A DNA stretch of 64,000 bases from a bacterium (GCA_031362565.1 JANLSU010000006.1:1-64000); one strand, 5' to 3'; positions 7,601 to 50,310 are shown, numbered from the stretch's first letter. Translations and numbers: made by a program. Notes: a model not told the origin generated them from the letters alone.

Positions 7601-7945
7601 CAACAACGGCAGTCCAAGAGGACGCAGCGAATCCGTGGCGGCGACCACGAACTCGGTCCCCAGATCTGCCGTGAATCGAGCCACTTCAAGCGAATCCGGC
7701 TCGGCCAGCCGTTTCGAATCAACCGCTCGTCCGGCCGCAACGAGTGCCTGGCGGCCCTCCCCACGCCTGATGCACTCGAGCATGGTGCCGCGTTCCGCCG
7801 CGGCCCGTTTCGCCGCAACGGCAGCCTGCGTTCCGCCGGAATGCGCGCGGCCGGCGGCGGCACGGTCCGCCACCAGCCCCGTCGCGACGAGGCAAACCAC
7901 GGCCCAAGAGCGGAGCCGCCGCAAGCGAACAGTTCTTGGAACCAC
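4634..7945 (-). CDS. TPR-repeat CHAT (caspase-like) protease with putative signal peptide
   Basis: Kinesin-light-chain-type TPRs (QGRYSEAETLYKRAL), IVPDGILHRLPFEAL, catalytic HLATHG and LSACST, HPYYWAPF end. Confidence 0.92.
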   Translation of the reverse strand: MVPRTVRLRRLRSWAVVCLVATGLVADRAAAGRAHSGGTQAAVAAKRAAAERGTMLECIRRGEGRQALVAAGRAVDSKRLAEPDSLEVARFTADLGTEFVVAATDSLRPLGLPLLMQALEIRRHAAGDHSRAVASATNVISTYYYLLGRYEEAAEWERRSLDVLEAIPGVPDSLLAFTRKDLGLVYYQLGRYTEAKDLFQSGLQVFETGPNKEPFLAADLNNCLGEIMRLEVRYEDSRRCFERATLLTDSLIAHAPDADLKLKYERFLGVVWLNRANLLYEQSRYNDAEARYRWVVALWEAKGCDQPMALPHAYLNVAEICRFQGRYSEAETLYKRALTLGRQEAGADNPDTFWFLHALAELFVEQGRYAEAEDAYRECIDLLERAGTAGAVRIGLPLRSLADLMRLRGRYDEAEVLYRRSADAYRDAVGMQAPELARTTVGLARCLFARLNPDLETARRLSGDALKILDATHVFPEARLDALLLTAEISHQEGDTRRAQAILAAALEGAEELRRGSSVDDRGRAAFFADYSPAFEKMVAWSLEHGDVATAIQSSERFRARVLLEQMRLAGVDLMAGLPDSVRTPLARREQQANLDLAQTERRLAVLRQTPGPDSRDDSPRVQEIVRARDESLEKLRVVQSDVRRVSPLWTQSVASGDATITVQQIQDELVRKDEGLLLYCVGADASYAILVRKGTAPLAFALEIGTADAAALRVASGAATRNRLGRALSAVEPAVEPAADRPSRGVTTTSGAHANVPAGGERTVLDLLETPGDHFPETDQRRLHALWNVLIPAALQPMIRAMDRLVIVPDGILHRLPFEALVMDAPYGDNAPVFWLERGPIVRYAPSATVLWTQMGALRQRAAPPRTGGILSVSDATFQDSAAAAGSSMENVVPQQARGERFGALSRLPGTAAESERIVAAFGASAVDLLQRHAATEARVRVELAGKRYIHLATHGIVENRRDDTYAALALTPGGSARIDRDNDGFLELGEIYGLHLDADLVVLSACSTHQGTWVDGDGVFALSRGFLAAGCPRVIGSLWRVDDASTAQMIGDLFAELARAEHRKRTPDFAGALRDARLRLRRSRAWAHPYYWAPFVMLGQR

Positions 7946-8141
7946 GCCCGTCCTCTGATTTGTGTGTGCGTTCTCCTGGAGCGTTGCATTCTACCGTATG
8001 AGGGCAAGGGTGCACGAAAGGCCCTCCCGGCGGTTCTTGACGGGCCCCGCCGGCTCCGCTAGCCTCATTGCTTCGAGGCAGAACTCACGCGGGTCCCACG
8101 GCCGTTGCACGGCTGCACGGGATAACGCAAAGGGCTTGCTC

Positions 8142-10775: not shown

Positions 10776-10827
10776 ATGCATCCGGCGAAGGCATTCCCAT
10801 GGACGGGACAACACAAAGGCCTTGCTC

Positions 10828-13464: not shown

Positions 13465-13511
13465 AGGCGTTCAATCCGGGCCGGAACACGAACGATCGCT
13501 GGGCGTTCGAA

Positions 13512-13586
13512 CGGATGCGTTTTCCTCCAACGGGATGGTGGTTGGAGACCGCGGGTAGAGGGATGAACTGGACTTCGACTTTGTTC
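13512..13586 (-). pseudogene. 3' stub of a paralogue of the HTH antitoxin at 24735-25148
   Basis: 13534-13586 matches 24821-24873 at 49/53 nt; NKVEVQFIPLPAVSNHH vs NKIQVQFIPLPAASNHH. Confidence 0.8.
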
Positions 13587-13761
13587 CTCGGCGCGGTTCG
13601 GCGTTTGGTGCCGCGCGTGGGACTCCTTGGGTTGATCTTCTTTTCGCCGGCAAGCGTCACTGCCGGCCGGCCGGTGCCACCGTCGTCACCGTTCGAGCAG
13701 TTTTGCGCCCTGCCTCCGGATAGCAGCGCCACGCGCGAAACCTTGTTTAGGGCCGATCCGA

Positions 13762-16808: not shown

Positions 16809-16995
16809 GAATCACGACCCGCAAGGCGCACCTGCCGCACGCCCGGCGTCCACCGGGCCCGCCAAGCTATGACCATACCCCCGCCTCTTCGGCTATTCTT
16901 AGGTAGGGATACGGGTTGGAGCCTTCGCCAATCTGAACATGGAACCCCTTGGGTTTTTGGTCCCGGTCGGTGACCGGCGAGGAGAAGTGCTCCGG

Positions 16996-20658: not shown

Positions 20659-23600
20659 ATGCGCTCTCGTTTCCCGCGCGCCGCGCCGGCCGTTGTGGCA
20701 TTCCTGTTGTTTGCCGCGAGCGCCGCGCACGGCGCTCTGCTCACTCGAGGGCCTTACCTGCAGTCGGTCAACTCGACGAGCGCCGTCGTCATGTGGCGGT
20801 GCACGTCGACGGCAAGCGTCGTGCTGGAGTATGGGCCCACGCCGGCGCTCGGCACCCAGATCAACCTGACGCCCGGCAGCGCGCAGTACGAACCCGAACT
20901 CACAGGCCTCGCACCCGCAACTCAGTATTGGTATCGCATTGTCGCCGACGGCCAGGTCTTGGCGGGCGGGTCCAGCTTCCGCTTCACGACCGCGCCGGAG
21001 CCCAATTCCGGCCGCGGCACCGAGTTCGTCTTATGGGGCGACTCCGGCAAGGGCAGCGCGAGCCAGACGGCGGTCGCCGCGGTCCTGAACGCGCAGCAAG
21101 CCGACTTCGGCCTGATCGTAGGCGACATCATGTATTCGGACGCGCTCCTGCACTACGACGATTCGTACTTCGTGCCGTACGCGGGGCTCATCCGCCATGC
21201 ACCGGTGTGGGCGGTGCGCGGCAACCACGATACCGACATCGCGACGTACACGGACGTCTGGCACCTGCCGGTCAATCCGGTCGACGGCAGCGAGCTGTTT
21301 TATTCCTTCGACTACGGCGATCTGCATTTCAGCGTATTGGATTCGAACGCCATCACTCCAACCGTGCTGGCGTGGCTGGACGCCGATCTCGCCTCGACCA
21401 CGCGGCGCTGGAAGTTCATCGCGCTGCACCACACGATTTGGTCGTGCGGATCGGCCCATGGCAACAGCTCGACGTTGCAGGGGTGGATCGCGCCGATCGC
21501 CGAAGCCCGCGGCGTCGACATGGTCTTGTACGGCCACGACCACGATTACGAACGCACGTGGCCGATGGCGGACAGCGTAGCGACCTCGACAGCGTCGAAT
21601 CCCGACTTCGTGAACCCGGGCGCGCCGATCTACATGGTGTCGGGCGGCGGTGCAGACCCGCGGCCACTGCTCACGCCGCCGTGTTTCTTTTCGGCAGCGG
21701 CGCTTGCGATCTCGCATGCCGTGCGCTTTGAGGTGGACGGCGATCTCCTGTCGCTCGAGTGCCTCGATGCTTCAGGCGTGATCCGGGACCGGATGACTTT
21801 GTACAAGAGCACGACGCCGACCGACGGTGCGCTCGATCTCTTCGCGCCACGCGGCGGCGAGAGCTTCACCATCGGGGCGAGCGTGAACGTGCGCTGGGCC
21901 GCGAGCCGCGGTATGGGCGACGTGCGGCTCGAACTCTCGCGGACGGGCCCCACTGGACCTTGGGAGACGCTCGCCGCGCAGACGCCGAACGACGGCGCCG
22001 AACAAGTGACACTCGTGGGGCCAACGGCATCCGAGGCCTGGATGCGGATTTCGGCAGCCGACGGCAGTCCTGCGGTCGATATAATGGACGCGGCGTTCGC
22101 GATTCTCGACGGCCCGCCACCCCCGCCTCCGCCTCCGCCTCCTCCCCCTCCACCACCGCCGCCGGATCCGAATCTGCCGCCGGTCACGGCGACCGCGCGC
22201 ATCAACTTCCAGCCGCGTACGACGACAGCGCCCGTCGGTTACACGATCGACGCCGGCGACGCCTTCGACACCGTGCGTGGATTCGGATGGACGCCGCGCG
22301 TCACCGTGGAAGCGCGCAACAGCAGCGTGGAGGTGCGGCTCGATACGTACGCGTACGTCACCAACCCCGCGGCCGCCACCTGGCAGATGGCGGTAACGAA
22401 CGGCAGCTACCGGCTGACGTTCGTCGTGGGCGATCCCAGCTTCAGCGGCGTGCATCGCGTGGATGTCGAAGGGGTGCGCGCGGTGAACGACGTCGCGACG
22501 ACCGGCAGCTTCTACACGGTCAGCAACTGGCCGGTGGACGTGGCGGACGGATTCTTGACGATCCGTCTGGGCGGGATCACGGGCAACACGAAGAAGTCCA
22601 AGATCTGTTATCTCGATCTCGACCCCGCGGGCACCAACCCGCCGCCGCCGCCACCCGTGAATCAGCCGCCGGTGGTCGCGATCAACGTCGCGCCGCGGAC
22701 CGGCACCGCGCCGCTCGCCGTCGGGACGAGTGCGAGCGCAACCGACCCCGAAAACCAGACCATCACGTATGACTGGCGATTCGGCGACGGCGGTACGGCA
22801 TCTGGCGCGCAGGCACAACACACCTATTCGCAGACGGGCACTTTCTGGGCCGTCGTTCGTGCGACGGATCCTGCCGGTGCGTCGGACGCCGAAAGCCTGA
22901 CAGTGACGGTGTCCCCGCCAACGCCACCTCAGAATCAACCGCCCACCGTCGCGCTCACCGTAACCCCGCGCACGGGGACGGCGCCGCTCGCAGTGAATGT
23001 GAGTGCAACCGCGACGGATCCCGAGAATCAGGCCATCACGTACAAATGGCGCTTTGGCGACGGCGGTACGGCGTCGACCGCCCAGGCGCAGCACACGTAC
23101 GCGCAGGCGGGCACATACTGGGCCGCCGTTCGCGCGACGGACCCGGCGGGTGCCGCGGACTCGGAAAGCTTGACCGTCACGGTTTCGGCGCCGCTGCCGC
23201 CACCGCCGCCCTCCACGACCGCGCTCAAGATCGACTTCAAACCCACGGCTGCCGCGCTTGCCGTCGGCTATACGGCCGACACTGGCGCCAAATTCGACGC
23301 CGTACGTAAGTTCGGCTGGGACAAGTCCGTGTCGACAGACGTGCGCAACCGGAATGCCGACCTGCGGCTCGACACGTTCGCCTATGCGACGAATCCGGCA
23401 TTCCGCATTTGGGACGCGGTGTTGCCCAACGGCAGTTATCTCGTGACGCTCGCGCTCGGCGATCCAGCCGGTACCGGGCGCCATCGGCTCCTGCTGCAGG
23501 GCGCAGTGGTCGTGGCGGATGCGTCGACGGCCGACAACCAATTCATCACCCTGACCGATGTCCCCGTCACGGTGATCGACGGCAGGTTGCACATGCAGAT

Positions 23601-23970
23601 CGGCGGTATCGCCGGCACGTCGAAGAAGACCAAGGTGTGCTACATCGATGTGCGGCCGGCGCCGGCAGCAAAGCCCGACGACCTGGCCGTGCGCGCCTTG
23701 TGGCGCGTCGAGCTGCGCCCGAATCCGGCGCGAGGCAGTGTGGGATATGCCCTGCGCTTGCCCGCGTCGGCCGACGTTTCCGTGCGGATCTTCGATGTGC
23801 GCGGGCAGCTCGTGCGGACGCTGCACGACGGTGCAGTGCCGGGCGGCACCTTCACCGCGACATGGGACCGGCGGGACGAGTCCGGACGGGAGGTCGAAAG
23901 CGGCATCTACTTCGTACGGACGCGCACCCAGGGACGCGTACAAACCGACAAGCTGACTCTTGTACGGTGA
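20659..23970 (+). CDS. Secreted purple-acid-phosphatase-like metallophosphoesterase with 2 beta-sandwich modules, 2 PKD domains and FlgD-Ig CTD
   Basis: RGPYLQ FN3; GD, GDIMY, GNHD, HH, GHDH motifs; two W.FGDG PKD repeats; about 17-Pro linker at 22114-22164; CTD. Confidence 0.88.
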   Translation: MRSRFPRAAPAVVAFLLFAASAAHGALLTRGPYLQSVNSTSAVVMWRCTSTASVVLEYGPTPALGTQINLTPGSAQYEPELTGLAPATQYWYRIVADGQVLAGGSSFRFTTAPEPNSGRGTEFVLWGDSGKGSASQTAVAAVLNAQQADFGLIVGDIMYSDALLHYDDSYFVPYAGLIRHAPVWAVRGNHDTDIATYTDVWHLPVNPVDGSELFYSFDYGDLHFSVLDSNAITPTVLAWLDADLASTTRRWKFIALHHTIWSCGSAHGNSSTLQGWIAPIAEARGVDMVLYGHDHDYERTWPMADSVATSTASNPDFVNPGAPIYMVSGGGADPRPLLTPPCFFSAAALAISHAVRFEVDGDLLSLECLDASGVIRDRMTLYKSTTPTDGALDLFAPRGGESFTIGASVNVRWAASRGMGDVRLELSRTGPTGPWETLAAQTPNDGAEQVTLVGPTASEAWMRISAADGSPAVDIMDAAFAILDGPPPPPPPPPPPPPPPPPDPNLPPVTATARINFQPRTTTAPVGYTIDAGDAFDTVRGFGWTPRVTVEARNSSVEVRLDTYAYVTNPAAATWQMAVTNGSYRLTFVVGDPSFSGVHRVDVEGVRAVNDVATTGSFYTVSNWPVDVADGFLTIRLGGITGNTKKSKICYLDLDPAGTNPPPPPPVNQPPVVAINVAPRTGTAPLAVGTSASATDPENQTITYDWRFGDGGTASGAQAQHTYSQTGTFWAVVRATDPAGASDAESLTVTVSPPTPPQNQPPTVALTVTPRTGTAPLAVNVSATATDPENQAITYKWRFGDGGTASTAQAQHTYAQAGTYWAAVRATDPAGAADSESLTVTVSAPLPPPPPSTTALKIDFKPTAAALAVGYTADTGAKFDAVRKFGWDKSVSTDVRNRNADLRLDTFAYATNPAFRIWDAVLPNGSYLVTLALGDPAGTGRHRLLLQGAVVVADASTADNQFITLTDVPVTVIDGRLHMQIGGIAGTSKKTKVCYIDVRPAPAAKPDDLAVRALWRVELRPNPARGSVGYALRLPASADVSVRIFDVRGQLVRTLHDGAVPGGTFTATWDRRDESGREVESGIYFVRTRTQGRVQTDKLTLVR

Positions 23971-26607: not shown

Positions 26608-28392
26608 TCATTTCGAGAGAACCATCTTCTTCGACTCCGCGAGCGTTCCTGCCCGCAGCCGATAGAAGTACACGCCTGATTTGGCCGCGGCGCCCTCGTC
26701 GTCGCGTCCATTCCACGTGACCTCGTGCGGACCGTAGCCGAGAACCTCGTTCACCAGTGTCCGCACCAGCCGCCCCTCTGCGTCGTAGATCGCAAGCGTC
26801 ACATCCTCGCGCCCCGGGAGCACGAAACCGATCGTCGTCGTGGGGTTGAACGGGTTCGGTCGGTTCTGCTCCAGTCTACGGGCGATCATTCCGACGGCGA
26901 CCGTCACGATCGGGGAGAAGAACTCTCCGTCCGTGTCTACGACGCCGATCTGGTAGCGGTACGTCTGACCCGGAACGACTTCACGATCCACATATTCGAA
27001 GCCGTCGCTCCGGACATCATCCGCGCGTCCGATGATCGTCAGCGGATCGCCGTCGGTGCCGAGGCCTCGATATACATTCACGGCCTCGACCCCGAGGTCG
27101 GGGCGGAACGTGCTTTGCAGCGTAACGACCCGATTCGCCAACACGGCGTCGAACGACAAGATCGCGACTGAGGTCTGCAGGGCGGCGAAGATTGCACGGG
27201 CCCGCGCCGGCTCTCCGGAGACGATGAACGCGGCAGCTTGGCTCAACAGCGCCATCACCGGCGCATCGCCATGGTGTGCTTTTCGCAGCCCGTAGAGGGT
27301 ATACGGCAGCGCCAAGTCTTCAGAAGTGTAGGGAAGCGCGTGGAACCCACGTGCAACATTCTGCACATATTCGAGGTACTGATAGCCGTATTCTTGCGTG
27401 GGCTCGATATTGGTCCCCTCATTGAAGTCGTTCCAGGTCACGATTTGAATGACCTGCGGGTGGGCCAGCAACGCACGATCCAGGGTCTCCGAAAAGGTCA
27501 GCCCATTGCGGGCGTCGAGGTAGCCGTACGAGGGCTGGACGCCGGCCTCCTGGTAAATGTCGTGGAAGCCGGGAACCGCGCCGCCCACCACGATGGGCCA
27601 CGTCGTGGCGCTCGAATAGAAATCGTCGAGGTACTGGTGGAGGACCTCGGGTGCCAAGACGCCCCCGACCGACAACCACATGGGCGGCCAAGGGAAAGCA
27701 CCGGCGGCGACCGTTCCAAGGCGATTGTTGAGCGGGAAGAACTGAGCACCGGCGCTGAACACGCTGAGGATCGCTGCCCAGGCCGGCTCGCTGTAAAAAT
27801 ACTGTGGGCCGAAATTCAACACGACCGGTTTCCCATCCAGCGTGAGGTAGGCGGGCTGGTTCGCCCAATGGTTGAGGACGTAGGTCATATCGCGCTGGCC
27901 CTGCTCAACGGCTTGGTCGGCGGTGATCCGACCGTTGTTGATCAGCTGGGTGATGGTCTGGTCTTCGTAACAAACAGCGAAGCGGAGGCCAGCCGCGGAG
28001 AGCGCGTTGAAGAGTTTGATCGTACCCGAATTGATCAGCGGATAATCGTAGAGGCTCGAGGATCCATCCCAATCCGCGATGGCGCCGTCGATCCCGGCCA
28101 CCTTCATCAGCAGCACGTGGTACTCGACCAAGTCGGCGTCGCGCGAATCGTACGGCCCGATGAGCGGATAATAGTGCGACGCGATCCTGCGACGTCCTTG
28201 CTCGTCGAAGGTTTCGGGGTTGTAGTGATTCATCGTCCAGTGCCATCCCCATGACCCCCCGAGAGCCTTGGATTGGTACATGGGCATGTAATGCACCATC
28301 AGGATCGGCGGCGGTGGTGGCGGCTCGGCAAAGAGGATAGTGGGCAGCGAGACGATTGCAAGCAGCGCGACGGCAGTCTTCAAAGGCGTCAT
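26608..28392 (-). CDS. Secreted GH71/GH99-like glycoside hydrolase + FlgD-Ig CTD
   Basis: VHYMP, IASHYYPLIGPYDSRD, AGIDG..DW, QIVTWNDFNEGT; PNPFNP CTD. Confidence 0.85.
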   Translation of the reverse strand: MTPLKTAVALLAIVSLPTILFAEPPPPPPILMVHYMPMYQSKALGGSWGWHWTMNHYNPETFDEQGRRRIASHYYPLIGPYDSRDADLVEYHVLLMKVAGIDGAIADWDGSSSLYDYPLINSGTIKLFNALSAAGLRFAVCYEDQTITQLINNGRITADQAVEQGQRDMTYVLNHWANQPAYLTLDGKPVVLNFGPQYFYSEPAWAAILSVFSAGAQFFPLNNRLGTVAAGAFPWPPMWLSVGGVLAPEVLHQYLDDFYSSATTWPIVVGGAVPGFHDIYQEAGVQPSYGYLDARNGLTFSETLDRALLAHPQVIQIVTWNDFNEGTNIEPTQEYGYQYLEYVQNVARGFHALPYTSEDLALPYTLYGLRKAHHGDAPVMALLSQAAAFIVSGEPARARAIFAALQTSVAILSFDAVLANRVVTLQSTFRPDLGVEAVNVYRGLGTDGDPLTIIGRADDVRSDGFEYVDREVVPGQTYRYQIGVVDTDGEFFSPIVTVAVGMIARRLEQNRPNPFNPTTTIGFVLPGREDVTLAIYDAEGRLVRTLVNEVLGYGPHEVTWNGRDDEGAAAKSGVYFYRLRAGTLAESKKMVLSK

Positions 28393-28543
28393 GGCGGCCT
28401 CCACTGGAGAGCCTTGAGCGTAGCCCCTTTCCAGCCCGTTCCCTACGAACTTGTTATTCGCCGTCGATGAGGTTGGGCAGAAATGCAGCGGCGTGCGTCG
28501 GCGAAGTGGTTCGAATTACGGACCCTGGCATGCGGTTAAGATG

Positions 28544-35994: not shown

Positions 35995-36060
35995 CGAGCA
36001 CTGGATGGCTGGAGAGGGCGAGTGCTTCGCCCTTTCCAGCCGACATATTTGAAGGGGTTC

Positions 36061-37065
36061 ATGCGATCAGGTCGGCGCCGAGAGCACCGATTGTTCCTGC
36101 TCCTCGCGGCAGGCGTCGTCCTTTCCTGTGACGACAATACCCGCCCGCCGCCACCCGGTGACTCTTCGGAATGCGTGCCGGGGCACAACGAGTTCGACTT
36201 CCCGATGCATCACCAACACCCTGCGTGGTCTCGGCAGGGGCTCGTTGCGTTCCAAGATGCGGGTATCGTCATGGTTGACTCGTCTGGCGTCTATGACACC
36301 GACTCGTCGTTGGCCGGACTGTGGGTGCTCAATCCGACCACCGGAGTACGGCGACGCATTACTCCCTATGGACGCGCACCGACGTGGTCGCCGGATGGGA
36401 CGAAGATCGCGTTTTCCGTCGGGCAGATTTTCACGGTGAATCCCGATGGGACCGCGCTTCGGCAACTCACCTTTCTTGGTGCTCACCACTTTCCTTCGTG
36501 GAGTCCTTCTGGGGACTTGATCGCGTACGACGACGCACAGCATCTGTGGATCATGCGCGGGGACGGCACGAACCCACAGAATATTGGACTGGTGGAACAG
36601 CCGCAAGGTTCGCGAATGCCGAGTTGGAATCCCAACGGGACGAAGATCGTTTACATCGGGTATGTCGACGCAACGTTCCCTACGTCGCGCGCGGAGGTTT
36701 TCGTGATGGATGCGTCGGGCACCAACGCGGTGCGGATAACCACCAACGAGACCGATGACACGTTCCCGGTGTTCTCACCAGATGGGCGAAGTATTGCATA
36801 CAGCGGCCAGTTTCTTGATGGCACCATCCCCGACTATCTGCTTCCGCAGATCTGGGTAGTGAGTGCTGATGGTGGCGGCGTCCGGCAACTTACCGCTCAC
36901 GGCGGCTATCATCCTTCCTGGTCCTCGAACGGCTTGATGATTGTCTACACTCGAGAGAATGCCATTTGCGACATCCCGGGAAATGGCGTTCTGTGGACGG
37001 TCGATCTCCGAACGGGTGTCGAGACGCAGCTGACGACGAAATGGCCCGAGCAGTCCCTGCAGTAG
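36061..37065 (+). CDS. TolB-like PD40 beta-propeller lipoprotein
   Basis: Lipobox VLSC; repeated P.WSPDG..IA[FY]. Confidence 0.88.
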   Translation: MRSGRRREHRLFLLLAAGVVLSCDDNTRPPPPGDSSECVPGHNEFDFPMHHQHPAWSRQGLVAFQDAGIVMVDSSGVYDTDSSLAGLWVLNPTTGVRRRITPYGRAPTWSPDGTKIAFSVGQIFTVNPDGTALRQLTFLGAHHFPSWSPSGDLIAYDDAQHLWIMRGDGTNPQNIGLVEQPQGSRMPSWNPNGTKIVYIGYVDATFPTSRAEVFVMDASGTNAVRITTNETDDTFPVFSPDGRSIAYSGQFLDGTIPDYLLPQIWVVSADGGGVRQLTAHGGYHPSWSSNGLMIVYTRENAICDIPGNGVLWTVDLRTGVETQLTTKWPEQSLQ

Positions 37066-37103: not shown

Positions 37104-37595
37104 CTCGCCGCTGCGAACGAGGGGCGATCGTTCTCTGGAGCCTCGGGTACGATGCCTCCCGACATCACTGATGTCGAGCGCTGTCGCAGCGGCGGCGATT
37201 CTACCACCGCCCAATCGGCCTCGCCAAGGACTGGCGTACAAATGACTCGATGCGACGTGGATCTCAATCGGGCCCCGTAGGGACCTTGAGCAGATCATGA
37301 ATCGCTCGATGATCTGGATATTGAATCGCCCCGGGATCGCCGGAGACTCCAATCCTTGAGAGGACGCTCCTATTGTCCGTAAGCGGTCTATAGTCGGAGC
37401 CTAGCTCCCGGTCCGGACTTGGGATAGAAGAGCCGACGCGAGTCCGGTTTTTTTCGCGGAGGTCCGGAGCGTACTCCGTTAGACGCGGCTAGCGTCTGCT
37501 GAATTACATCCACCTAGCGCAGCGCCATACGCCAGAACGATGGCGCAGATCTTGGACCCAGCACGGCGTGGCCGGTAGCTGAGCCACTGCGTTGG

Positions 37596-37681
37596 TGGTG
37601 CCGGGGCCGGGACTCGAACCCGGACACCCTTTCGGATAGAGGATTTTAAGTCCTCGGCGTCTGCCATTCCGCCACCCCGGC
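37596..37681 (-). tRNA. tRNA-Leu(TAA)
   Basis: GCCGGGG acceptor, GAGGA-cTTAAaa-TCCTC anticodon arm, long variable arm, GTTCGA T-loop, encoded CCA. Confidence 0.97.
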
Positions 37682-37819
37682 TACCGGAGTGGATGCTAGG
37701 AAGTGGGGAGGCGCGAGGCAAGGTGTCTTCGGTTTGCTGCCGCCGCAGCCGCGTCGCCAACCGTGGCTATCGAGCGGGGAACGACACTGGTGCGACCGCG
37801 GGACTCATAGGGCCGGCCT

Positions 37820-39781
37820 CTACCGCTTGATCTTCCACCGCGACCAGCGTCCCGGGGTAGGCCCGGCGGGTTCCAGCTCCTCGAGGGCGGTCGCTAGGTC
37901 CTGCATCGTCTGGTAGCGCTCCGCCTTGTCCTTCTGCAGGGTCTTCGTGACGATTGCCGCGAGTGCTTCGGGCAGATCGGGGTTCGCCTTGCGGATCGGC
38001 GGTGGCTCTTTGTTCACGATGGCGTACAGCACTGACATCTGGGTGTCGCCCTCGAAGGGCCGCCGGCCCGAGAACAGCTCGTACAGAACGATCCCGAAGG
38101 AGAAAATGTCGGTGCGGTGGTCGATGGTTCCGCCCTTCGCCTGCTCCGGGGACATGTACGCGGGGGTGCCGAGGGCGATCCCTGTCCGGGTGAGTTTCTC
38201 TTCGCTTTCGAGCTGCAGTTGCGCCAGGCCGAAATCCATGACTTTCACGACGCCTTCGTCGGTGATCATGATGTTGTCCGGCTTGATGTCGCGATGGACA
38301 ATCGAATTGGCGTGAGCGGCTGCGAACGCCCTTCCGGCCTGGATCGCAGCGCCAACCTGCGCATTGAAATTCTTAGGATCGTCGTGCCGCCAGACCTTCA
38401 GGGTGCGCCCTTGCACGAATTCCATGGAGATGTAATACCGGCCGTGATCTTCTCCGACCTCGTACACCGTCGCGATTCCGGGGTGGCTCAAACTCGATGC
38501 GGCCTGGGCCTCGCGCATGAATCGCTCCACGTACCGCTCGTCGGCCGACAGCATCTTTGGCAGTAGAACCTTCAGTGCCACGATCCGCTTGAGCTTGACG
38601 TCGCGCGCCTTATAGACCACGCCCATTCCGCCGGCGCCGATCTTGCCGAGAATTTCATGATGGCCGAGCGTTTCGCCAGGTTCCGGCAGGCCTTTGAGCG
38701 CGACGGTTCCGCCGCTGCTATGGGTCCCCGAAGGTGCGGGATCGAAATCCAAGACCTTCGACAAGCCGTCCGACTCCCGCCGCAGCCATCTCTCGAAGAA
38801 GAAGTTGGAGATGCTGTAACCCGTACCCACCTGCTTGACGCAACCCAACTGTCTCAGTTCGTAGAGGAGTGCGCTGACGCGATCACCGCCGACGCCGACG
38901 CGCGTTTCCAGAGCCACCGTGTCCAGATTCTCGCCCTGTACGAGGAGCAGGAGGATCTTCTTTTCGGCTGGATCGAGTGACTCGTAATCCACCGCAAAGA
39001 AGTGTGAGACCATGTCATCGGCGCTCGCTTCCTCGATCACTTCACCCAGAGTTCGGCCATCGAAAAGGCGCTCGCACAACAGTTGAACGAGGTACGGGTG
39101 ATTGTTGGTCTTCTCCATGACCGCCTGAACGTCCTCGGGCCTGAAGCCGCCCGGTTGGATCAGTGTCCTCGCTTCCTCATCGCTCAACCTCGAGAGATAC
39201 AACGGCGGAACGAACCCGTTCAGGAACGGCGACGTGTCGGTGAGTGCGCTGCGCTCGAGCTGGCCCAAACGCCGGGTGGCCGTGAGCACCGTGCGCAACG
39301 CCTCGCCCTGCTGCAGCACCCGCCGGAGTCGAGGCAGAGTCTCGGGCGCCGCCTTCTCGATGTTGAGGAGTTCCTCGCATTCGTCACAGAGCAGCATCAG
39401 GCTGAGGTTCTTGTCCCGCGCCTTGCGCTCCAGGTGACGCAGGATCTCGAACACGGTCATCCCGGCAAGCTCGTCGCAGCCGACCCCGATCGCCTCGAAG
39501 CGCTCGTCAGCGGCCTCGACGCTCTCGATCAAACTCTCCTTGAGGCCGGCCAGATCTCGGCTGCCCTGCAGATCCCACAAGAGAACGATGTATTCGCCGG
39601 CGTAAGGCGGGGACTGGCTCAGATGCTCGAGCTGCTTGAGTAACGACGTCTTGCCCAAGCGGCGCGTGCCGGCGACCCAAACGTAGTTCCGGCTTCCGTG
39701 CAGCACTTTCTCGAGCAGATCCTGGCGGCCGATGAACTTCTCACCACGCACCCATTTTCCCGCCGTGAAGGGATTCTTCAT
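37820..39781 (-). CDS. STAND-like P-loop ATPase + wHTH + Ser/Thr kinase fusion
   Basis: NPF.AG..FIGR, GTRRLGKTS, LLCDE, HPYLVQ; kinase GAGGMG, VALK, HRDIKPDN, DFG, YMSPEQ. Confidence 0.9.
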   Translation of the reverse strand: MKNPFTAGKWVRGEKFIGRQDLLEKVLHGSRNYVWVAGTRRLGKTSLLKQLEHLSQSPPYAGEYIVLLWDLQGSRDLAGLKESLIESVEAADERFEAIGVGCDELAGMTVFEILRHLERKARDKNLSLMLLCDECEELLNIEKAAPETLPRLRRVLQQGEALRTVLTATRRLGQLERSALTDTSPFLNGFVPPLYLSRLSDEEARTLIQPGGFRPEDVQAVMEKTNNHPYLVQLLCERLFDGRTLGEVIEEASADDMVSHFFAVDYESLDPAEKKILLLLVQGENLDTVALETRVGVGGDRVSALLYELRQLGCVKQVGTGYSISNFFFERWLRRESDGLSKVLDFDPAPSGTHSSGGTVALKGLPEPGETLGHHEILGKIGAGGMGVVYKARDVKLKRIVALKVLLPKMLSADERYVERFMREAQAASSLSHPGIATVYEVGEDHGRYYISMEFVQGRTLKVWRHDDPKNFNAQVGAAIQAGRAFAAAHANSIVHRDIKPDNIMITDEGVVKVMDFGLAQLQLESEEKLTRTGIALGTPAYMSPEQAKGGTIDHRTDIFSFGIVLYELFSGRRPFEGDTQMSVLYAIVNKEPPPIRKANPDLPEALAAIVTKTLQKDKAERYQTMQDLATALEELEPAGPTPGRWSRWKIKR

Positions 39782-41919
39782 GTCGTGTCACCTCCCTCGA
39801 CCACGCTCAGAACGACCTCCCGCACGGCTTCCACGTCGCCCACCGTGACTCGGCGGCGCTTCTCTTCGATGATCCGGTTGATGACGTTGATGCAGAATCT
39901 CTGGATGAGGTAAGGCTTGCGCTCGCTGTACTCGAGGATGCTATCGATGGCGCGGGCGTCGTAGCTGAAGATCCCCTTCACGGGCTCGCAGATCAGGTTC
40001 GTCGCGTCATCGGCTTGCAGCGGCGGAATCTCCATCTCCTGGAAAAAGTTGTACCAAGGGCTGCCTTCGCTCTCCCAGTTCTTCCGGATATAGGCACCTG
40101 ACATCACCGCGACGAGGTTGTCGGCAAAGGACTTCATGAACACACTCCGGAGCCGTTGATTGACTTGCTCGGAGTACTTGTTCAGTTCGTCGACCTCATC
40201 GATCAGGAGCACGAGCTTGAGCTGCTTCTCGGTCGTCTTCTTCAGCGCGTCGATCAAGGTCTTGAGATCGCGCGAGAACTCCCGCCCGGAATAATCGTTC
40301 TTGTTCCTCTGAAGCTCGAAGGACAGCACGTCTTTCAGTCTGGGCCTGCACGCCTCCAAGATGTCTTCTATGAGCGTGTTGAAGAAGCGATCCTCCGACG
40401 TCCCTTGCAGGTCGATCATCACCGGGATGTAGAGGTAGTCGGGGTCCTTGAGGGTTTCGAGCCGGCGCTTGAGTTCATGCTGCAGCGACGTCTTGCCGAT
40501 CCGGCGCGGTCCGTAGAGCATGAGGCTGTTGTTGTGCAATGTGTTCAGGATGCGGGTCAGGAGTTGTTCGCGCCCGAAGAGCATCTTTTCGTTACGGATC
40601 GGCGATCCTGCGATATACGGGTTGTACTTGTTGATGATGGCGATGCGGTACTTGATCGCCTTCTGCAGCAGCACGGCGCCAAGTCCGAGCAGGGCAATCG
40701 CGGCCAGGGAAATCCGAAAAACCGCCGTTTCGTACACCGCGGGCTTCCGGAAGATTCTGAACGGCTCGGGAGTCCAGTGTTGCGGCGAGTCCACGTCGTA
40801 CGCCGTGACGACGATCTGGTTCTCGCCCTTCTGGAGTGGAATGTCGGTGGCGAAGGCGATGCGCTTCGGGTCGTCGGTTGGACCTGGTCGAATCATGACT
40901 CGCACGCCCGATGCATCGAGCAACGGCGCGCCGTTCAGAGTGAACTCGATGTGATCGATGCCTTGGTCGTCCCCGACCTGGCCGGCCAGCCGCGCGTTGC
41001 CGGATCGCACCTGCGTCACTGAACCCGCGGGGGTGGAGATCGCGAAGAGTGGGGCAATGCTCTGCGGCATCGCCGGATCGGGCGGCTCGACGATCTTCTC
41101 GTCGGTCTTTTGTTTCAATCCCGCCAGATCGGCCTGGGTCTTGCGCACCCATGCCGCGGCAACGCCGAGATTGGGATCCTGCTGCAGGGCCGCCGTGAAC
41201 TCTTTGAGCGCCAGCTGGTACTCACCCAGCAGGTAGTGATTGAGCCCAGCTTCGAACCTCTCCCGACCCATCGGCGCCACCGGTGGCGGTAGTAATGGCC
41301 TAGGGATGTCGGGTTCCTGCCTCATCAAGCGGATGTATTGTTCGAGACTGTTCCAGCGCCGGTCACCAGGACGGCGAGTCTTCAGCTCGTCGATCTTGGC
41401 TTGCGCCTGGATAAAGTCCTCCGCGTCGATCAAATCGAGTGTCGCCGACAGCGTCGAGAGCGTCGAGTCGCGAGAGTCCGGCGCCGCTGGGCGCGGCTCG
41501 GCAGGAAGAACGAGCTGCTCGGCGATCTTCTTCAAACGTTCGAGATGATGCTGGTGGGTAGTTTTCGCAACCTCGCCCGCCTGTTCTTCCTTGCGAAAAT
41601 TCTCCAACGCCAATCGCGAGTCACCGGAGTAGAGATACGCCTGTCCAAGATAGTAATACGGCAAGTACTCGACGAGTTTGAGGCCGGCGGTCATTGCTTG
41701 ACGGTCGGGGTGCGAGCGATCTGCGACAGCGGCTTGAAAGCTCGCAACGGCCTTGTTCCAGTCGCCGTGGTCGAGCGCGCTCTTGCCGTTCTCGTAAGCC
41801 TCGTTCCAAACCTCGGCGTGCAGCGCGGATCCCGAGAGGCAGATGGCAAGGAATACAACACAGGTCGAGATGTGCCATCGGTGTTCAGGCGCGAGACCCG
41901 ACATTTTGATCAACCGCAT
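39778..41919 (-). CDS. Signal peptide-TPR-Ig-TM-STAND-like ATPase
   Basis: Signal ending ALHA; TPRs; GENQIVVTAYD Ig; TM ISLAAIALLGLGAVLL; NPYIAG..LFGRE, GPRRIGKTS, LLIDEVD, KPYLIQ. Confidence 0.88.
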   Translation of the reverse strand: MRLIKMSGLAPEHRWHISTCVVFLAICLSGSALHAEVWNEAYENGKSALDHGDWNKAVASFQAAVADRSHPDRQAMTAGLKLVEYLPYYYLGQAYLYSGDSRLALENFRKEEQAGEVAKTTHQHHLERLKKIAEQLVLPAEPRPAAPDSRDSTLSTLSATLDLIDAEDFIQAQAKIDELKTRRPGDRRWNSLEQYIRLMRQEPDIPRPLLPPPVAPMGRERFEAGLNHYLLGEYQLALKEFTAALQQDPNLGVAAAWVRKTQADLAGLKQKTDEKIVEPPDPAMPQSIAPLFAISTPAGSVTQVRSGNARLAGQVGDDQGIDHIEFTLNGAPLLDASGVRVMIRPGPTDDPKRIAFATDIPLQKGENQIVVTAYDVDSPQHWTPEPFRIFRKPAVYETAVFRISLAAIALLGLGAVLLQKAIKYRIAIINKYNPYIAGSPIRNEKMLFGREQLLTRILNTLHNNSLMLYGPRRIGKTSLQHELKRRLETLKDPDYLYIPVMIDLQGTSEDRFFNTLIEDILEACRPRLKDVLSFELQRNKNDYSGREFSRDLKTLIDALKKTTEKQLKLVLLIDEVDELNKYSEQVNQRLRSVFMKSFADNLVAVMSGAYIRKNWESEGSPWYNFFQEMEIPPLQADDATNLICEPVKGIFSYDARAIDSILEYSERKPYLIQRFCINVINRIIEEKRRRVTVGDVEAVREVVLSVVEGGDTT

Positions 41920-41921
41920 GG

Positions 41922-43283
41922 TTAGAACTCGATATGAGCGGAGCCGGTGACCGAATTGACCTCTCGCGACGCCAACAGGCCCAAGTCCAACTTGAAGTTA
42001 CCGATCGGTACGATGCCGATTCCTCCAGCGAAGTAGGTCCGATCCTTGGCCTCGGGATAGAAGCCCTGCAGATTCACATTGCCTTCACTAGCATGAATGC
42101 GATGGCCGGGGTTGGTGAAGGCGCCAGCTCGCACCGGCACGATGCCCAACCAAGGCAGGTCGGCGATGAACTCCACCCCGACGTGAAACTCGTAGGCGTC
42201 AGTGGCCACCAAGTCCGGCTGTCCGTCGGGGTCCCGGTAGGTTCCGCCGGCGTCCGGCGTGTCGTCGGCGATCGCATTGCGGCTGTTGCCATCCAAGAGG
42301 TCGGAGTACTCGATCCGCGCCACGTCGAAGGCGAACCGCAGTCGATCCATCATCACATAGTAGAAGCCCAGGCCTTGGGAATCGGGAATGTGGAAATCGA
42401 ACGGCACATTCCGCAACAAGCTGGCGGGAAGCACCTCCGCGCCGACCGTGTACTCGGGAAGGAAAACATCGCTGTGGAACGTGTACTTGGGACGGACGTG
42501 CGCCACAGCGCCAAGGAACAGTTTATTCCGGAAAAGGGTGGCCAGCATCCCGAGATCATAGGTCGGGGCGACGTCAGTCTGGTCCAGCGTCGTGACGGAG
42601 TACATGGTTTCTACGGAGTTCCGCCTTGGCGCACTGCCATTGGCAACCTCCGGATCCAAGAAAAGGTGCTCGCTCGCGCTGATCCTGAGGAAGGACAACC
42701 GGGTACACGCGCCGAAGCTGATGCGATTCGACGGCGCATAAGCCATCGCAACGCATTCGTCGACGAGCGTCAGGTTCAGAGTGACTCGGCGTCCGGGAAA
42801 GTTGCCCAGGCCCCCGAGCACCTGACGAGCGTTGAGGGGCGACCGGGTCGTGAGGAATTGCTGGGTCTCGAACTCGAAGCGCGAATCCATCTGGACCTGG
42901 CGAAACATCGAAAAAGCGAACTTCTTCATCGGATAGACGAGGCTGACCAGGCTTTGTTCGAAGTTGGATGAGCGGAAACGCTTCGTGCCCGTTGGGTTGT
43001 CCGGGGAGCCTTCAGGCTCGTCATAGTTGAGTTGTGACCAGCGTTGGTGCGTGGACGCTCCGGGTTTGTCGAGGCGCGTCATCCCAGCCGGATTGACGCT
43101 GGACGAGATCTCGTCTTGGGCCGCCGCGATGAACGCGCCAGCCAGTCCGCTCGGTCGCGCGCCGGGGACAATGAAGTCGACCCTGAAATAGCGCGGATCC
43201 AACGCCGCGACGGGAGGGCGCTGCGCTTCGCAGTCCCAGGCGACGAGCAAGATGAGAACACCGGCGCAGTGCGACAGCCGCAT
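41922..43283 (-). CDS. FadL/OmpP1/PorV-like outer-membrane beta-barrel
   Basis: PGARPSGLAGAFIA..NPAGM hatch motif; terminal Phe (AHIEF). Confidence 0.8.
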   Translation of the reverse strand: MRLSHCAGVLILLVAWDCEAQRPPVAALDPRYFRVDFIVPGARPSGLAGAFIAAAQDEISSSVNPAGMTRLDKPGASTHQRWSQLNYDEPEGSPDNPTGTKRFRSSNFEQSLVSLVYPMKKFAFSMFRQVQMDSRFEFETQQFLTTRSPLNARQVLGGLGNFPGRRVTLNLTLVDECVAMAYAPSNRISFGACTRLSFLRISASEHLFLDPEVANGSAPRRNSVETMYSVTTLDQTDVAPTYDLGMLATLFRNKLFLGAVAHVRPKYTFHSDVFLPEYTVGAEVLPASLLRNVPFDFHIPDSQGLGFYYVMMDRLRFAFDVARIEYSDLLDGNSRNAIADDTPDAGGTYRDPDGQPDLVATDAYEFHVGVEFIADLPWLGIVPVRAGAFTNPGHRIHASEGNVNLQGFYPEAKDRTYFAGGIGIVPIGNFKLDLGLLASREVNSVTGSAHIEF

Positions 43284-43634
43284 GACTTGGTTTCCCCCGA
43301 TGGCCGCGAGTTTTGTCATCGTACCGGATCCGGGGTCGCGTTGCACGGCCGGGTCCCTGGGGCTTCCCACGGCCCCCGGCTCTTTTTTCACTCGACCGAT
43401 CCTTTCACCCGGTCGCGCGTCTGGGCGCACCCCGGTCGCATCACACTCCGTTCCGTCCTCCTGTCACGCACGGGAGGTGCCCATGGTCTCGCCAACTCGC
43501 ACACGATCGCATAGGGTTCTGGGCGCCGCTGCGGCGGCACTCCTCCTGCCGTCTTCGGAGGCCTGCCTGGACGCCGTTCGCGCCGCATGCCATCATGCGG
43601 CTTCTATCAGATGCCACACCCACGGAGGTCTCGC

Positions 43635-49037: not shown

Positions 49038-49372
49038 AGAACCGCCAAGGCATCGTTCGGTTGGACGGCCGGGTCGCGGGTACGCTTGCGGAATCGGGCC
49101 GGCAGATCGTGTTTCAATACACGCCTGCCTGGTGCGCCGATCCCACCGCCGTTCCCGTGTCGCTGACGATGCCGCTGCGCGCCGAACCGTATGTCTCCGA
49201 AGGCTTGCATCCGTTCTTCGAAAACCTCTTGCCCGAAGGCTGGCTTCTGGAGCTTGCAACCCGCAAGCTCAAGATCGCCAAGGACGATGCGTTCGGTTTG
49301 CTGCTCGCGACGTGCGCGGACTGCATCGGCGCCGTCGAAGTCGTTCCAATGACGACGGACGCCCCGCCATGA
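49034..49372 (+). CDS. HipA N-terminal-domain protein (HipS-like)
   Basis: VSLTMPL, LHPFFENLLPEGW, DCIGAV; ATGA overlaps. Confidence 0.88.
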   Translation: MKNRQGIVRLDGRVAGTLAESGRQIVFQYTPAWCADPTAVPVSLTMPLRAEPYVSEGLHPFFENLLPEGWLLELATRKLKIAKDDAFGLLLATCADCIGAVEVVPMTTDAPP

Positions 49373-50310
49373 CAACGGTCTGCCGCGCTTGTCTCGGCGA
49401 TCTGCGGGAGCCGGGTGAGTATCACGCGCGTTGCGTCCGCCGGCTCTTCGGCTCCACGAAAGTCCCCCGGCTCGACATCGAGCTAGCCAAGCTGCACACG
49501 GCAGCTCTGGCGATGGTTGGTCATACTTCCTTGTCCGGCGTTCAGAAGAAGATCTCGCTCAATCTTTCGACGGACCGTGAGACGTTGCAAGTCGCGGCCG
49601 GCAAGAGTCGCTACATCCTCAAGGTGCAAAGCGATCCGTATCCCGCGCTGCCGGAGAACGAGCATCTGACGACTCGTCTCGCGCAACTCGTGGAGATCCA
49701 GGTTGCGCCGTTCGGACTCGTGCCGCTCAAGGACGGCTCGCTCGCCTATGTCGTCCAACGGTTCGACCGGCTGCCGGACGGCCGCAAGCTGCGCCAGGAG
49801 GACTTCTGCCAACTCGCCGAGCTGTCGCCGAAGGAGAAATACGATTCGACCGCTGAGCGCTGCGTGAAGCTGGCCCAGCGATTCGCTTCGGAACCGCTCA
49901 TCGCAACGCTCGCGCTGTACCGGCTCTTGGTGTTCACGTGGTGGTCGGGCAATGGCGACATGCACCTGAAGAATTTCTCGCTGCTGACCGATGAGCAGGA
50001 GACCATTCGTCTGACGCCCGCCTACGATCTGCTTTGTACCCGGCTCGTCATTCCGAATGACCCGCTAGCCCTGCCAGTCTGCGGCAAGAAGGACAACCTC
50101 GATCGCGACACGTGGCTGGAGTTCGCAAAGTACGCCCGGCTTTCCGACAAGGCGGCATCTCGCGTTCTGGACCGGCAGTCGGCAGTCAAGACGGACGCAA
50201 CGGCGCTCGTCGACCGCAGTTTCTTGCCGGCCGAAATGAAAACGCAGTACCGAAGTCTAATTGACGAGCGAACAAAGCAGCTCGGTCGCCCTATCGGTAA
50301 ATCTGCTTGA
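49369..50310 (+). CDS. HipA_C kinase toxin (HipT-like)
   Basis: SLSGVQKK, QEDFCQ, GNGDMHLKNFS, LTPAYDL; N-terminal CxxC..HxxC. Confidence 0.9.
   Translation: MTTVCRACLGDLREPGEYHARCVRRLFGSTKVPRLDIELAKLHTAALAMVGHTSLSGVQKKISLNLSTDRETLQVAAGKSRYILKVQSDPYPALPENEHLTTRLAQLVEIQVAPFGLVPLKDGSLAYVVQRFDRLPDGRKLRQEDFCQLAELSPKEKYDSTAERCVKLAQRFASEPLIATLALYRLLVFTWWSGNGDMHLKNFSLLTDEQETIRLTPAYDLLCTRLVIPNDPLALPVCGKKDNLDRDTWLEFAKYARLSDKAASRVLDRQSAVKTDATALVDRSFLPAEMKTQYRSLIDERTKQLGRPIGKSA

Follow-up and report, generated by a model that had tools for sequence, protein, structure and literature searches.

We analysed a 64,000-nucleotide stretch of bacterial DNA (GCA_031362565.1 JANLSU010000006.1:1-64000; this whole stretch is called the window) and studied three adjacent minus-strand genes at positions 37820 to 43283. 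Gene 1 encodes a FadL-family outer-membrane barrel, gene 2 a membrane receptor-like nucleoside triphosphatase (NTPase; here G2), and gene 3 a paralogous NTPase joined to a Ser/Thr kinase (G3). The trio is a real, conserved and unnamed form of paired-NTPase signalling of the STAND type (signal transduction ATPases with numerous domains), one half of which is a membrane receptor and which includes, in one clade, a FadL-type channel; its function we infer. The features of the locus are as follows.

41922..43283 (longest open reading frame to a GTG at 43430), minus strand: gene 1, FadL-family outer-membrane barrel of 453 aa with a Sec-type signal peptide, N-terminal hatch, NPA motif and C-terminal Phe.
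41815..41919, minus strand: G2 aa 1-35, predicted signal peptide with a hydrophobic core at aa 15-38 and an AXA-like site, read from the sequence, between ...SALHA and EV.
40738..41814, minus strand: G2 aa 36-394, predicted periplasmic ectodomain consisting of a tetratricopeptide repeat (TPR) part, a helical linker, a second TPR part and an Ig-like beta-sandwich, with the motif DDxGIxxIEFxLNG...PLxxGEN.
40651..40737, minus strand: G2 aa 395-423, predicted single transmembrane helix (hydrophobic segment), followed by K/R-rich KAIKYRIAIINKYNPY.
39781..40647, minus strand: G2 aa 425-713, predicted cytoplasmic P-loop NTPase with helical lid (Walker A GPRRIGKTS, Walker B LLIDEVDE, KPYLIQ).
38759..39781, minus strand: G3 aa 1-341, paralogous NTPase, helical domain and winged helix (GTRRLGKTS, LLCDECEE, TATRR, HPYLVQ).
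37874..38659, minus strand: G3 aa 375-636, Hanks-type Ser/Thr kinase with complete GxGxxG, VALK, HRDIKPDN, DFG and SPE motifs.
37596..37681, minus strand: tRNA-Leu(UAA), 138 nt beyond the stop codon of gene 3, at the end of the unit.

The open reading frames (ORFs) of the three genes span 41922..43430 (GTG start), 39778..41919 (713 aa) and 37820..39781 (653 aa). Genes 1 and 2 are separated by a 2-nt gap (...GAGTTC TAA CC ATG... at 41917-41927), and genes 2 and 3 share an ATGA overlap (...ACG ACATGAAG... at 39778-39781), exactly as an earlier note on this DNA, made from the sequence alone, had described them. Gene 1 was taken as 41922-43283, because the protein from the ATG at 43283 begins with a typical signal peptide (MRLSHCAGVLILLVAWDCEAQ) and aligns with the N-termini of 24 homologues, and a purine-rich GGGGGA stretch lies upstream of this ATG. 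A divergently transcribed ABC transporter is found upstream of gene 1 and the tRNA-Leu(UAA) downstream of gene 3, and the unit therefore consists of three genes. A scan for promoters and terminators gave nothing exceeding shuffled expectation. A 93-aa ORF at 37479-37760, which overlaps the tRNA gene, was discarded as spurious. An island linked to the tRNA was also rejected, since no second copy of the tRNA-Leu(UAA) 3' end was found in the window and the trio lies 5' of the tRNA.

The sequence of gene 1 matched Toluene_X (PF03349, FadL/OMPP1/TodX) over residues 97-381 with 25.5 bits (E 5.7e-6), below the Pfam gathering score of 29.7, and matched the PorV/PorQ model NF033709 weakly, below the NCBIfam cut-off. 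An AlphaFold2 (AF2) model based on 25 homologues had a predicted local distance difference test (pLDDT) of 87.7 and a predicted template modelling score (pTM) of 0.84, and predicts a FadL-type barrel with the N-terminal hatch in its lumen. When this model was used in a structure search, unrelated barrels scored 18.7 or lower, and the FadL-fold structures that were matched include parts of the Bacteroidota barrel assembly machinery (BAM) and type IX secretion system (T9SS) (9hiv_F, 9hjm_F, 9n2d_B, 8gl6_F). The NPA motif of the hatch (N64 P65 A66), which we take to be the signature of the FadL family, in agreement with the titles of PDB entries 2r4o, 2r4n and 2r4l, was invariant in 25/25 aligned barrels. 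Judged by its model, gene 1 is a FadL-family outer-membrane channel, for which channel activity is predicted.

As read from its sequence, G2 spans the inner membrane once, carries a TPR/Ig-like ectodomain and has a cytoplasmic NTPase without an output. Hydrophobicity predicts a signal peptide and a single internal transmembrane segment in 23/23 aligned homologues, in line with the topology that had been suggested for the window protein alone. The ectodomain (~360 residues) matched TPR_16 (42-75), TPR_2 (222-250) and, weakly, the Ig-like Big_7 (292-332) in Pfam, and its N-terminal TPR had weak matches to BamD/YfiO, YbgF and BatC. An Atlas search with the ectodomain led to TPR and beta-sandwich proteins, with every score below 0.9. 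In the alignment this part is conserved across phyla at the level of single residues. The G3 profile aligns to aa 433-680 of G2 only, and because ~33 residues remain after this part, G2 appears to have no winged helix and no output. The tripartite arrangement of a nucleotide-binding oligomerisation domain (NOD), composed of a nucleotide-binding domain (NBD), a helical domain and a winged helix, thus seems incomplete in G2. Walker A and B (GPRRIGKTS, LLIDEVDE) were invariant in 23 aligned sequences. A sequence search of the PDB with the G2 profile returned TPR or chance matches only.

About 70 full-length homologues of G2 were found, with 37-60% identity and with the source names 'tetratricopeptide repeat protein', 'ATP-binding protein' or 'AAA family ATPase'; the ATPase part alone has relatives in 1411 protein clusters at E 1e-20 or better. 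A third paralogous ATPase with 29% identity to that of G2 is present in the genome of the window, at the edge of a 2.2-kb contig (G000:C111:5-730, L003). Ectodomain-only relatives of 587-631 aa were also observed (L036:6135-8030 and L053:3278-5041, in genomes G003 and G002, and also in G001). They are homologous to G2 aa ~137-426 with 38-39% identity and have no ATPase part, and a gene for a large PD40/DPPIV-type protein follows each of them.

G3 is, by its sequence features, a soluble paralogous NTPase followed by a winged helix and a Hanks kinase with intact motifs, for which kinase activity is predicted. Its ATPase is paralogous to that of G2, with 32% identity (E 7e-14). An AF2 model of the G3 module (pLDDT 90.8, pTM 0.88) contains an NBD, a helical domain and a winged helix, and in this model the tripartite NOD arrangement appears complete, with a GxP-like motif in the helical domain and three helices and a beta-hairpin at aa 271-324. 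The best structural matches were the archaeal ATPase_2 proteins 2qen (E 1.7e-12) and 2fna (E 5.8e-12), with template modelling scores (TM-scores) of 0.60-0.67, and further matches included resistosomes and NB-ARC domains of plant nucleotide-binding leucine-rich-repeat receptors (NLRs), ORC/Cdc6, Apaf-1/CED-4 and Avs3. A sequence search of the PDB with G3(1-350) returned TPR or chance matches only. Walker A and B (GTRRLGKTS, LLCDECEE) were invariant in 31 aligned sequences. A linker of ~30 residues joins the winged helix to the kinase, which matched Pkinase (PF00069) with 162.9 bits against a cut-off of 31.7 (E 1.2e-47) and a PknB-type model with 328.9 bits. The motifs GAGGMG, VALK, HRDIKPDN, DFG and SPE are conserved in the kinase-bearing G3 orthologues.

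The earlier note had regarded both ATPases as STAND proteins. In profile classification the 289-residue G2 NTPase passed ATPase_2 (39.8 bits, cut-off 33.2) and AAA_16 (35.9 bits, cut-off 32.6) and came slightly under nSTAND6 (26.8 vs 27.7 bits) and nSTAND1 (24.9 vs 27.1), with NACHT at 13.1 vs 26.7 bits; G3 gave weak AAA and ATPase_2 matches, with every NTPase model below its cut-off. The quoted motifs NP[FY]xAG..FxGR, GxRRxGKTS, hhhhDE and xPYL are all present and conserved in both ATPases. The reading of the domains of the three genes was upheld by Pfam matches, motifs and the AF2 models of genes 1 and 3, and so was the division of labour that it implied, in which G2 lacks an output domain and G3 lacks a sensor.

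Conservation of the trio was determined by a G2-seeded scan with one genome per species, in which the best 80 of 134 loci were analysed. Thirty-six loci are titled other than Acidobacteriota and include KSB1/Zhuqueibacter, Calditrichia, 'bacterium' and two Krumholzibacteriia contigs, among others. The full trio of barrel, G2 and kinase-bearing G3 in the order of the window was found in 17 of the 22 loci of this group with both flanks visible. The barrel was upstream of G2 in 25/30 loci with at least 1500 nt upstream, and G3 was downstream in 19/26 loci with at least 1100 nt downstream, being kinase-fused in 19/19. The five loci without the trio comprise L070 with barrel and G2 only, L071 and L090 with G2 and kinase-bearing G3 only, and L075 and L078 with G2 alone and an AraC-type regulator. 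The order barrel-G2 with gaps of 1-25 nt recurs in divergent lineages. The other 44 loci are of an Acidobacteriota type (43 titled Acidobacteriota, Vicinamibacteria or Sulfidibacter, and L141, titled Hyphomicrobium, with the same neighbours). Here G2 has ~810 aa and is followed by a 345-aa G3 consisting of NTPase and winged helix only. G3 was directly downstream of G2 in 41/41 of these loci with at least 1100 nt downstream, and none of them was kinase-fused. In the cultured Sulfidibacter corallicola M133 (L136), G2 is accompanied by a G3 of 468 aa, which likewise has no kinase.

G3-seeded searches gave a similar picture. Among metagenome contigs, where the best 80 of at least 392 relatives were kept, 55 loci showed more than 600 nt upstream of G3, and in 53 of these a G2-type ATPase gene directly preceded it. 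In a phylum with one trio genome, 29 of 167 species genomes had both genes, 4 had G2 only, 3 had G3 only and 131 had neither; G2 was thus present in 33/167 genomes, with one copy each, and G3 in 32/167 at E 1e-60 or better; two of the positive genomes are marked as unpublished. Among the G3 loci of this phylum, 23 offered more than 600 nt of upstream DNA: G2 was upstream in 18 of them, the barrel directly upstream in 3 and neither in 2. The three with the barrel (L242, L249, L250) carry it directly upstream of a kinase-bearing G3, with G2 on another contig. Adjacency of G2 and G3 is near-obligate, and linkage to the barrel is clade-specific. Co-conservation, on which the earlier note had made its proposal depend, was found for the trio (17/22) and more strongly for the ATPase pair (41/41; 53/55).

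In the phylum of the window itself (208 genomes), a true G2-G3 orthologue was found elsewhere only in genome G006, and no close barrel orthologue was present. The nearest relative of all three window genes is in the same locus, L064. Since orthologues are sparse in its own phylum and the nearest relative is common to the three genes, the operon probably entered the lineage of the window as a unit. The distance matrices of barrel, G2 and G3 from 17 trios correlated pairwise (r 0.94, 0.89 and 0.96; reached by 0/999 permutations); L086 was omitted from this comparison, as its G2 reads as two ORFs. The G2/G3 module is single-copy per genome, its matches fall in runs of consecutive genome handles, and its neighbours look housekeeping-like. 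No match was found in 72,556 plasmids and 50,697 phages at E 1e-10.

Some variants of the layout were seen in these searches. The orphan G2 of L075 and L078 has an AraC-family regulator in place of G3 (L075:6296-7264, L078:10215-11345), and in genomes G364-G366 an orphan G2 co-occurs with a distant locus of barrel and kinase-bearing G3. The closest G3 orthologue in the family of the window (L035:7465-10158, G006:C27; 897 aa) carries an inserted domain, Sigma70_r4, that separates its winged helix from its kinase.

The G3 module belongs to a large family, of which 386 representative proteins score E <1e-30; at E <1e-10 the number rises to 4127. We surveyed outputs in the best 150 of the 386 representatives, 20 of which were scanned for domains. 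In these 150 the module is solitary or joined to varied extensions. Regulatory outputs included Pkinase with an extracytoplasmic function (ECF) sigma factor, ECF sigma alone, Sigma70_r4, Trans_reg_C with or without FHA, SpoIIE (PP2C) and adenylate/guanylate cyclase, whereas the immune-type outputs were TIR, SIR2, CHAT and PNP_UDP_1; AAA_21 and TPR were also found. In P0088 the ATPase, kinase and ECF sigma are joined in a single chain, and P0095 combines the ATPase with ECF sigma. This range of alternative outputs lends support, at the level of domain composition, to the view put forward in the earlier note that G3 may act as an executor. Three single chains read as a G2-type followed by a G3-type module. 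P0112 has a signal peptide, a Reg_prop/Y_Y_Y sensor, a transmembrane helix and both modules, P0163 has both modules and TIR, and P0200 is a fragment. Such fused chains are no more than suggestive of a functional pairing between G2 and G3.

A second pair, more distantly related, is widespread in the class of the window (Krumholzibacteria; L037-L052, e.g. L037:5554-10552). It consists of a 252-aa TPR and PEGA protein, an ATPase_2-type ATPase with a transmembrane segment at ~aa 411-436 and four PEGA domains, and a ~650-aa Pkinase-nSTAND2 protein. Often a 1681-aa FG-GAP protein comes next, whose C-terminal domain is of the T9SS type. The ATPase-PEGA gene was present in 16/16 loci examined, and the kinase-nSTAND2 cluster was detected in 14/16. 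The kinase-NTPase of this pair (L037:5554-7515) matches nSTAND2 (PF20702) with 6.2e-40. Like the window, this pair places a membrane-anchored ATPase with an extracytoplasmic domain beside a soluble ATPase-kinase. Unlike the window, it has the ATPase N-terminal to the transmembrane segment and the kinase N-terminal to the NTPase, and its NTPases are 26-30% identical to those of the window. The theme of a membrane ATPase with a soluble ATPase-kinase therefore recurs in another domain order.

Based on these results we propose that the G2 ectodomain would read either a hydrophobic ligand that enters via the FadL-type channel or the channel's own state. The signal would pass through the single transmembrane helix and alter the nucleotide or oligomeric state of the G2 NTPase, which could then recruit or template the G3 NTPase into a mixed oligomer. 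The G3 module is predicted to fold like NOD modules that oligomerise. Clustered G3 kinase domains would then undergo trans-autophosphorylation and phosphorylate their targets, and the G3 winged helix may be a structural part of the NOD-like module or, possibly, bind DNA. For the trio as one conserved trans-envelope signalling module, with a split pair of paralogous STAND-like NTPases at its core and the mechanism as proposed, we estimate a probability of about 0.5. Functional pairing of G2 and G3 is likely in our view, and a signalling role of the barrel is slightly favoured. Physical hetero-oligomerisation, the ligand and the contribution of the barrel we infer. The interpretation given in the earlier note is supported in part: architecture, topology, co-conservation and output diversity fit a split between sensor and executor. 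The barrel is not universal.

Several results weigh against the trans-envelope proposal. No barrel reached the scoring threshold in the 34 Acidobacteriota-type loci with at least 1500 nt upstream (0/34), and none was next to G2 in five of the 30 other loci (L071, L075, L078, L084, L090); the barrel is therefore outside the universal core. Genome G006, the closest relative in the family of the window, lacks the barrel in both of its G2-G3 copies. G3 was absent downstream of G2 in 7/26 non-Acidobacteriota loci (L068, L069, L070, L075, L078, L082, L084), and G3 occurred without an upstream G2 in the metagenome loci L149 and L152 and in L228 and L235. The matrix correlation reflects joint inheritance, is expected for any co-inherited genes and is no evidence of contact. 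P0112, P0163 and P0200 are each a singleton cluster and may be artefacts of gene calling or frameshifts, and no longer fused relatives of G3 scored, which is weak evidence given the type of search. In addition, the locus counts include related genomes and are non-independent, and at the other loci the longest ORFs served as gene calls in place of a gene finder, and they were scored with five window modules. The distribution of the barrel, including its absence from genome G006, would suit an alternative in which only G2 and G3 are functional partners, the barrel is a hydrophobic-nutrient channel co-transcribed in one clade, and the signal is another periplasmic cue. This is rather unlikely in our view, because the barrel stays directly upstream of the kinase-bearing G3 even when G2 is elsewhere (L242, L249, L250), its order and short gaps recur in divergent lineages and its distances follow those of G2 and G3. 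Moreover, a separate kinase gene and one for an 811-aa Toluene_X/UPF0164-like barrel protein closely follow the G2-G3 pair in the Acidobacteriota-type locus L098.

The trio could also be a conflict or anti-phage system, in which the NTPases sense an invader or a breach of the envelope and the kinase is the effector. TIR, SIR2, CHAT and PNP_UDP_1 on G3-module relatives are typical immune effectors, the fold of G3 resembles NLRs and Avs3, and a published two-gene nSTAND2 operon is interpreted, in the accessible part of its description, as counter-invader (PMC8195603). G2 weakly matches PADLOC PDC-S01 (1e-6, 52 residues) and NCBIfam DS41_1 (1.2e-3, 17.9 bits vs a cut-off of 370), the occurrence in the phylum of the window is patchy (orthologues in 2/208 genomes), and HipA-like and TPR-CHAT genes are also found in the window. 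However, PADLOC-DB 2.0 gave no significant defence model for the trio: the barrel matched 0 families, and the kinase domain of G3 alone matched PD-T4-6, mad6 and similar generic kinase models. Of 125 neighbour ORFs of 17 trio loci, 21 matched PADLOC at 1e-10, but 11 of them are sigma-54 activators, matched through a generic AAA+ core, and the others are scattered domains of a generic kind that add up to no complete system. The single copy per genome, the consecutive runs of genome handles, the absence from the plasmids and phages searched, the plainly regulatory outputs of many G3 relatives (ECF sigma, OmpR-type HTH, cyclase, PP2C) and the predicted periplasmic orientation of the G2 sensor all make a defence role distinctly unlikely. 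We consider at least as improbable that the trio is a machine for envelope biogenesis, transport or morphogenesis, which moves a hydrophobic component or organises wall remodelling and is merely regulated by the kinase. An Amidase_2 protein (31 loci) and a Volactin-family protein (28 loci) do flank the Acidobacteriota-type pair, in two arrangements, FadL-fold proteins belong to the Bacteroidota BAM and T9SS complexes mentioned above, the G2 TPR has its weak BamD/YfiO, YbgF and BatC matches, and a BatA/VWA gene adjoins one copy in genome G006. Nevertheless, the Volactin gene was not found in the genome of the window or in four trio-bearing genomes, the ATPases are of a switch type (NOD/ORC-like) and not transport motors, and the surroundings contain no conserved permease or component for lipid transfer. 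That signalling outputs vary among G3 relatives is also more in keeping with a switch than with a machine.

The proposed trans-envelope module shares features with several known systems. In plants, sensor/helper NLRs form pairs: one NOD protein senses but has no executing domain, and a paralogous NOD protein executes for it. Alignment of the G3 module to the NOD modules of NRC, RPP1, Sr35, CED-4 and Apaf-1 gave query-normalised TM-scores of 0.5-0.6. Unlike in paired NLRs, the sensor of the window is predicted to be a single-pass membrane protein with its sensing part outside the cytoplasm, G2 has no winged helix, and the output is a kinase. The FecA-FecR-FecI system is built in tiers: a barrel in the outer membrane, a transducer that crosses the inner membrane once and has a periplasmic domain, and a regulator in the cytoplasm. 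The window follows the same three-tier logic, and ECF sigma domains occur on the G3 relatives P0095 and P0088 and Sigma70_r4 on the orthologue in genome G006. Its barrel is of the FadL fold and not a TonB-dependent transducer, and the cytoplasmic part of G2 is an NTPase and not an anti-sigma factor; a Pfam scan gave no anti-sigma or sigma domain in G2 or G3 of the window, and no TonB or ExbBD link was seen. MalT, AfsR/SARP and PknK are STAND-type regulators or kinases with a fused NTPase, in which sensor and output are in one cytoplasmic chain. As in the window, an NTPase switch is coupled in them to a DNA-binding or kinase output. The archaeal ATPase_2 proteins PAB2304 (2qen) and SSO1545 (2fna) are the best structural matches of the G3 module, and G2 passes the cut-off of their family; they are, unlike the window proteins, stand-alone soluble proteins, and their entry titles give no function.

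The gene 1 barrel is related to the FadL/TodX/TbuX channels (PF03349) at a level below the Pfam cut-off, and is linked to an NTPase-kinase pair and not to catabolic genes. Cooperation between a FadL barrel and a periplasmic TPR may have a loose precedent in Treponema pallidum, whose FadL-like proteins are described, in the part of the source available, as having a periplasmic helical extension with a TPR motif (PMC8407342). The closest published relative of the paired arrangement is the two-gene nSTAND2 operon, in which paired STAND NTPases are predicted to form a hetero-multimer and one, inactive, partner carries GT4 or HEPN (Kaur, Iyer, Burroughs, Aravind 2021, eLife 10:e70394; PMC8195603). 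Like the window, it has adjacent STAND-type NTPase genes with a variable effector on one partner only. As far as the accessible text describes it, that operon differs in that one NTPase has eroded NTP-binding motifs, where both are intact in the window, in that its effectors are GT4 or HEPN and not a kinase, and in that it is presented as mobile and counter-invader; a transmembrane sensor half, an ectodomain and an outer-membrane barrel go unmentioned there (PMC8195603). Neither window protein matched nSTAND2 (PF20702) at E 0.1. Given the published two-gene nSTAND2 operon (PMC8195603), the idea of bacterial STANDs acting in pairs is not new. 'Transmembrane STAND ATPases' are also mentioned, in the portion available, as sensors fused to proteases (bioRxiv 10.1101/2025.11.14.688446), and nothing was found on such membrane/soluble pairs in the accessible part of a 2026 STAND survey (PMC13581612). 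A search of an open-access library, restricted to main texts, returned no description of the layout of the trio, and none of the curated family and defence models names it. The statement in the earlier note that no named system has this layout therefore stands for the literature searched, but must be narrowed with regard to paired STAND operons as such (PMC8195603).

Other genes accompany the trio or its relatives. A GAF/sigma-54 activator gene was present in 15/36 non-Acidobacteriota loci, mostly divergent from the barrel gene (L064, L065, L067, L074, L085, L087, L095-L097 and others). Sigma-54 control of the operon was considered and rejected: a -24/-12 consensus upstream of 25 barrel genes was found in 3 loci only (L065, L076, L085), and the window had one match with 2 mismatches, against a background of 0.25 per kb. 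The Volactin-family protein that flanks the Acidobacteriota-type pair together with Amidase_2 is homologous to actin (PF25216, E 6.8e-79). In these loci, a bacterial protein related to an actin that shapes archaeal cells lies beside a peptidoglycan amidase. As PF25216 was not found in the five genomes mentioned above, this link has no bearing on the trio of the window. GNAT and TPR proteins also flank the pair in Vicinamibacteria/Acidobacteriota, in the same two arrangements (L098-L143, e.g. L098:5350-7899). A gene cluster ('c14') downstream of the Acidobacteriota pair was dismissed as the antisense shadow of a DEAD-box helicase gene. A protein of ~620-635 aa with a nucleotide-cyclase-like region (PADLOC PycC, 1e-11 to 1e-13) is located directly 3' of the kinase-bearing G3 in two loci (L092:12110-13966, L100:11008-12915) and was not seen in the window.

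Elsewhere in the window, a PD40 gene is located just past the tRNA-Leu (36022-37065, plus strand). The window also encodes a 1103-aa TPR-CHAT protein (4634-7945, minus strand), two HipA_C-domain proteins (1051-2382 and 49132-50310, both plus strand) and a second Ser/Thr kinase with C-terminal TPRs (16939-19227, plus strand). Many large secreted proteins with a terminal, T9SS-like FlgD_ig domain are present (7962-16716, 20659-23970, 26608-28404).

A wider and more tentative proposal, which we find doubtful at present, is that G2 and G3 are the tip of a general modular form of transmembrane signalling. A single-pass receptor NTPase with an exchangeable extracytoplasmic sensor (TPR/Ig here, Reg_prop/Y_Y_Y and PEGA in relatives) would nucleate a soluble, paralogous executor NTPase, and the winged-helix module of the latter would bear exchangeable outputs (Hanks kinase, ECF sigma, OmpR-type HTH, cyclase, PP2C, TIR, SIR2 or CHAT). 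Bacteria would thereby possess a membrane-spanning equivalent of paired sensor and helper NLRs, and in one clade a FadL-fed relay across two membranes would carry hydrophobic signals.

The trio occurs in several mostly uncultured bacterial phyla. If the trans-envelope proposal is correct, the trio would join two-component systems, ECF/anti-sigma pairs and membrane-bound Hanks kinases as a further signalling route across the Gram-negative envelope. On this route, a membrane receptor and a soluble executor would each hold one part of an NTP-driven switch. A large family (1411 clusters of the G2 ATPase at E 1e-20 and 386 representatives of the G3 module at E 1e-30) would gain a function, and one common switch would link kinase, sigma and cyclase as regulatory outputs with the immune-type outputs TIR, SIR2 and CHAT. 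A FadL-type channel dedicated to signalling and not to nutrition would be new, and the pair would provide a bacterial test bed for the mutual activation of paired NOD proteins.

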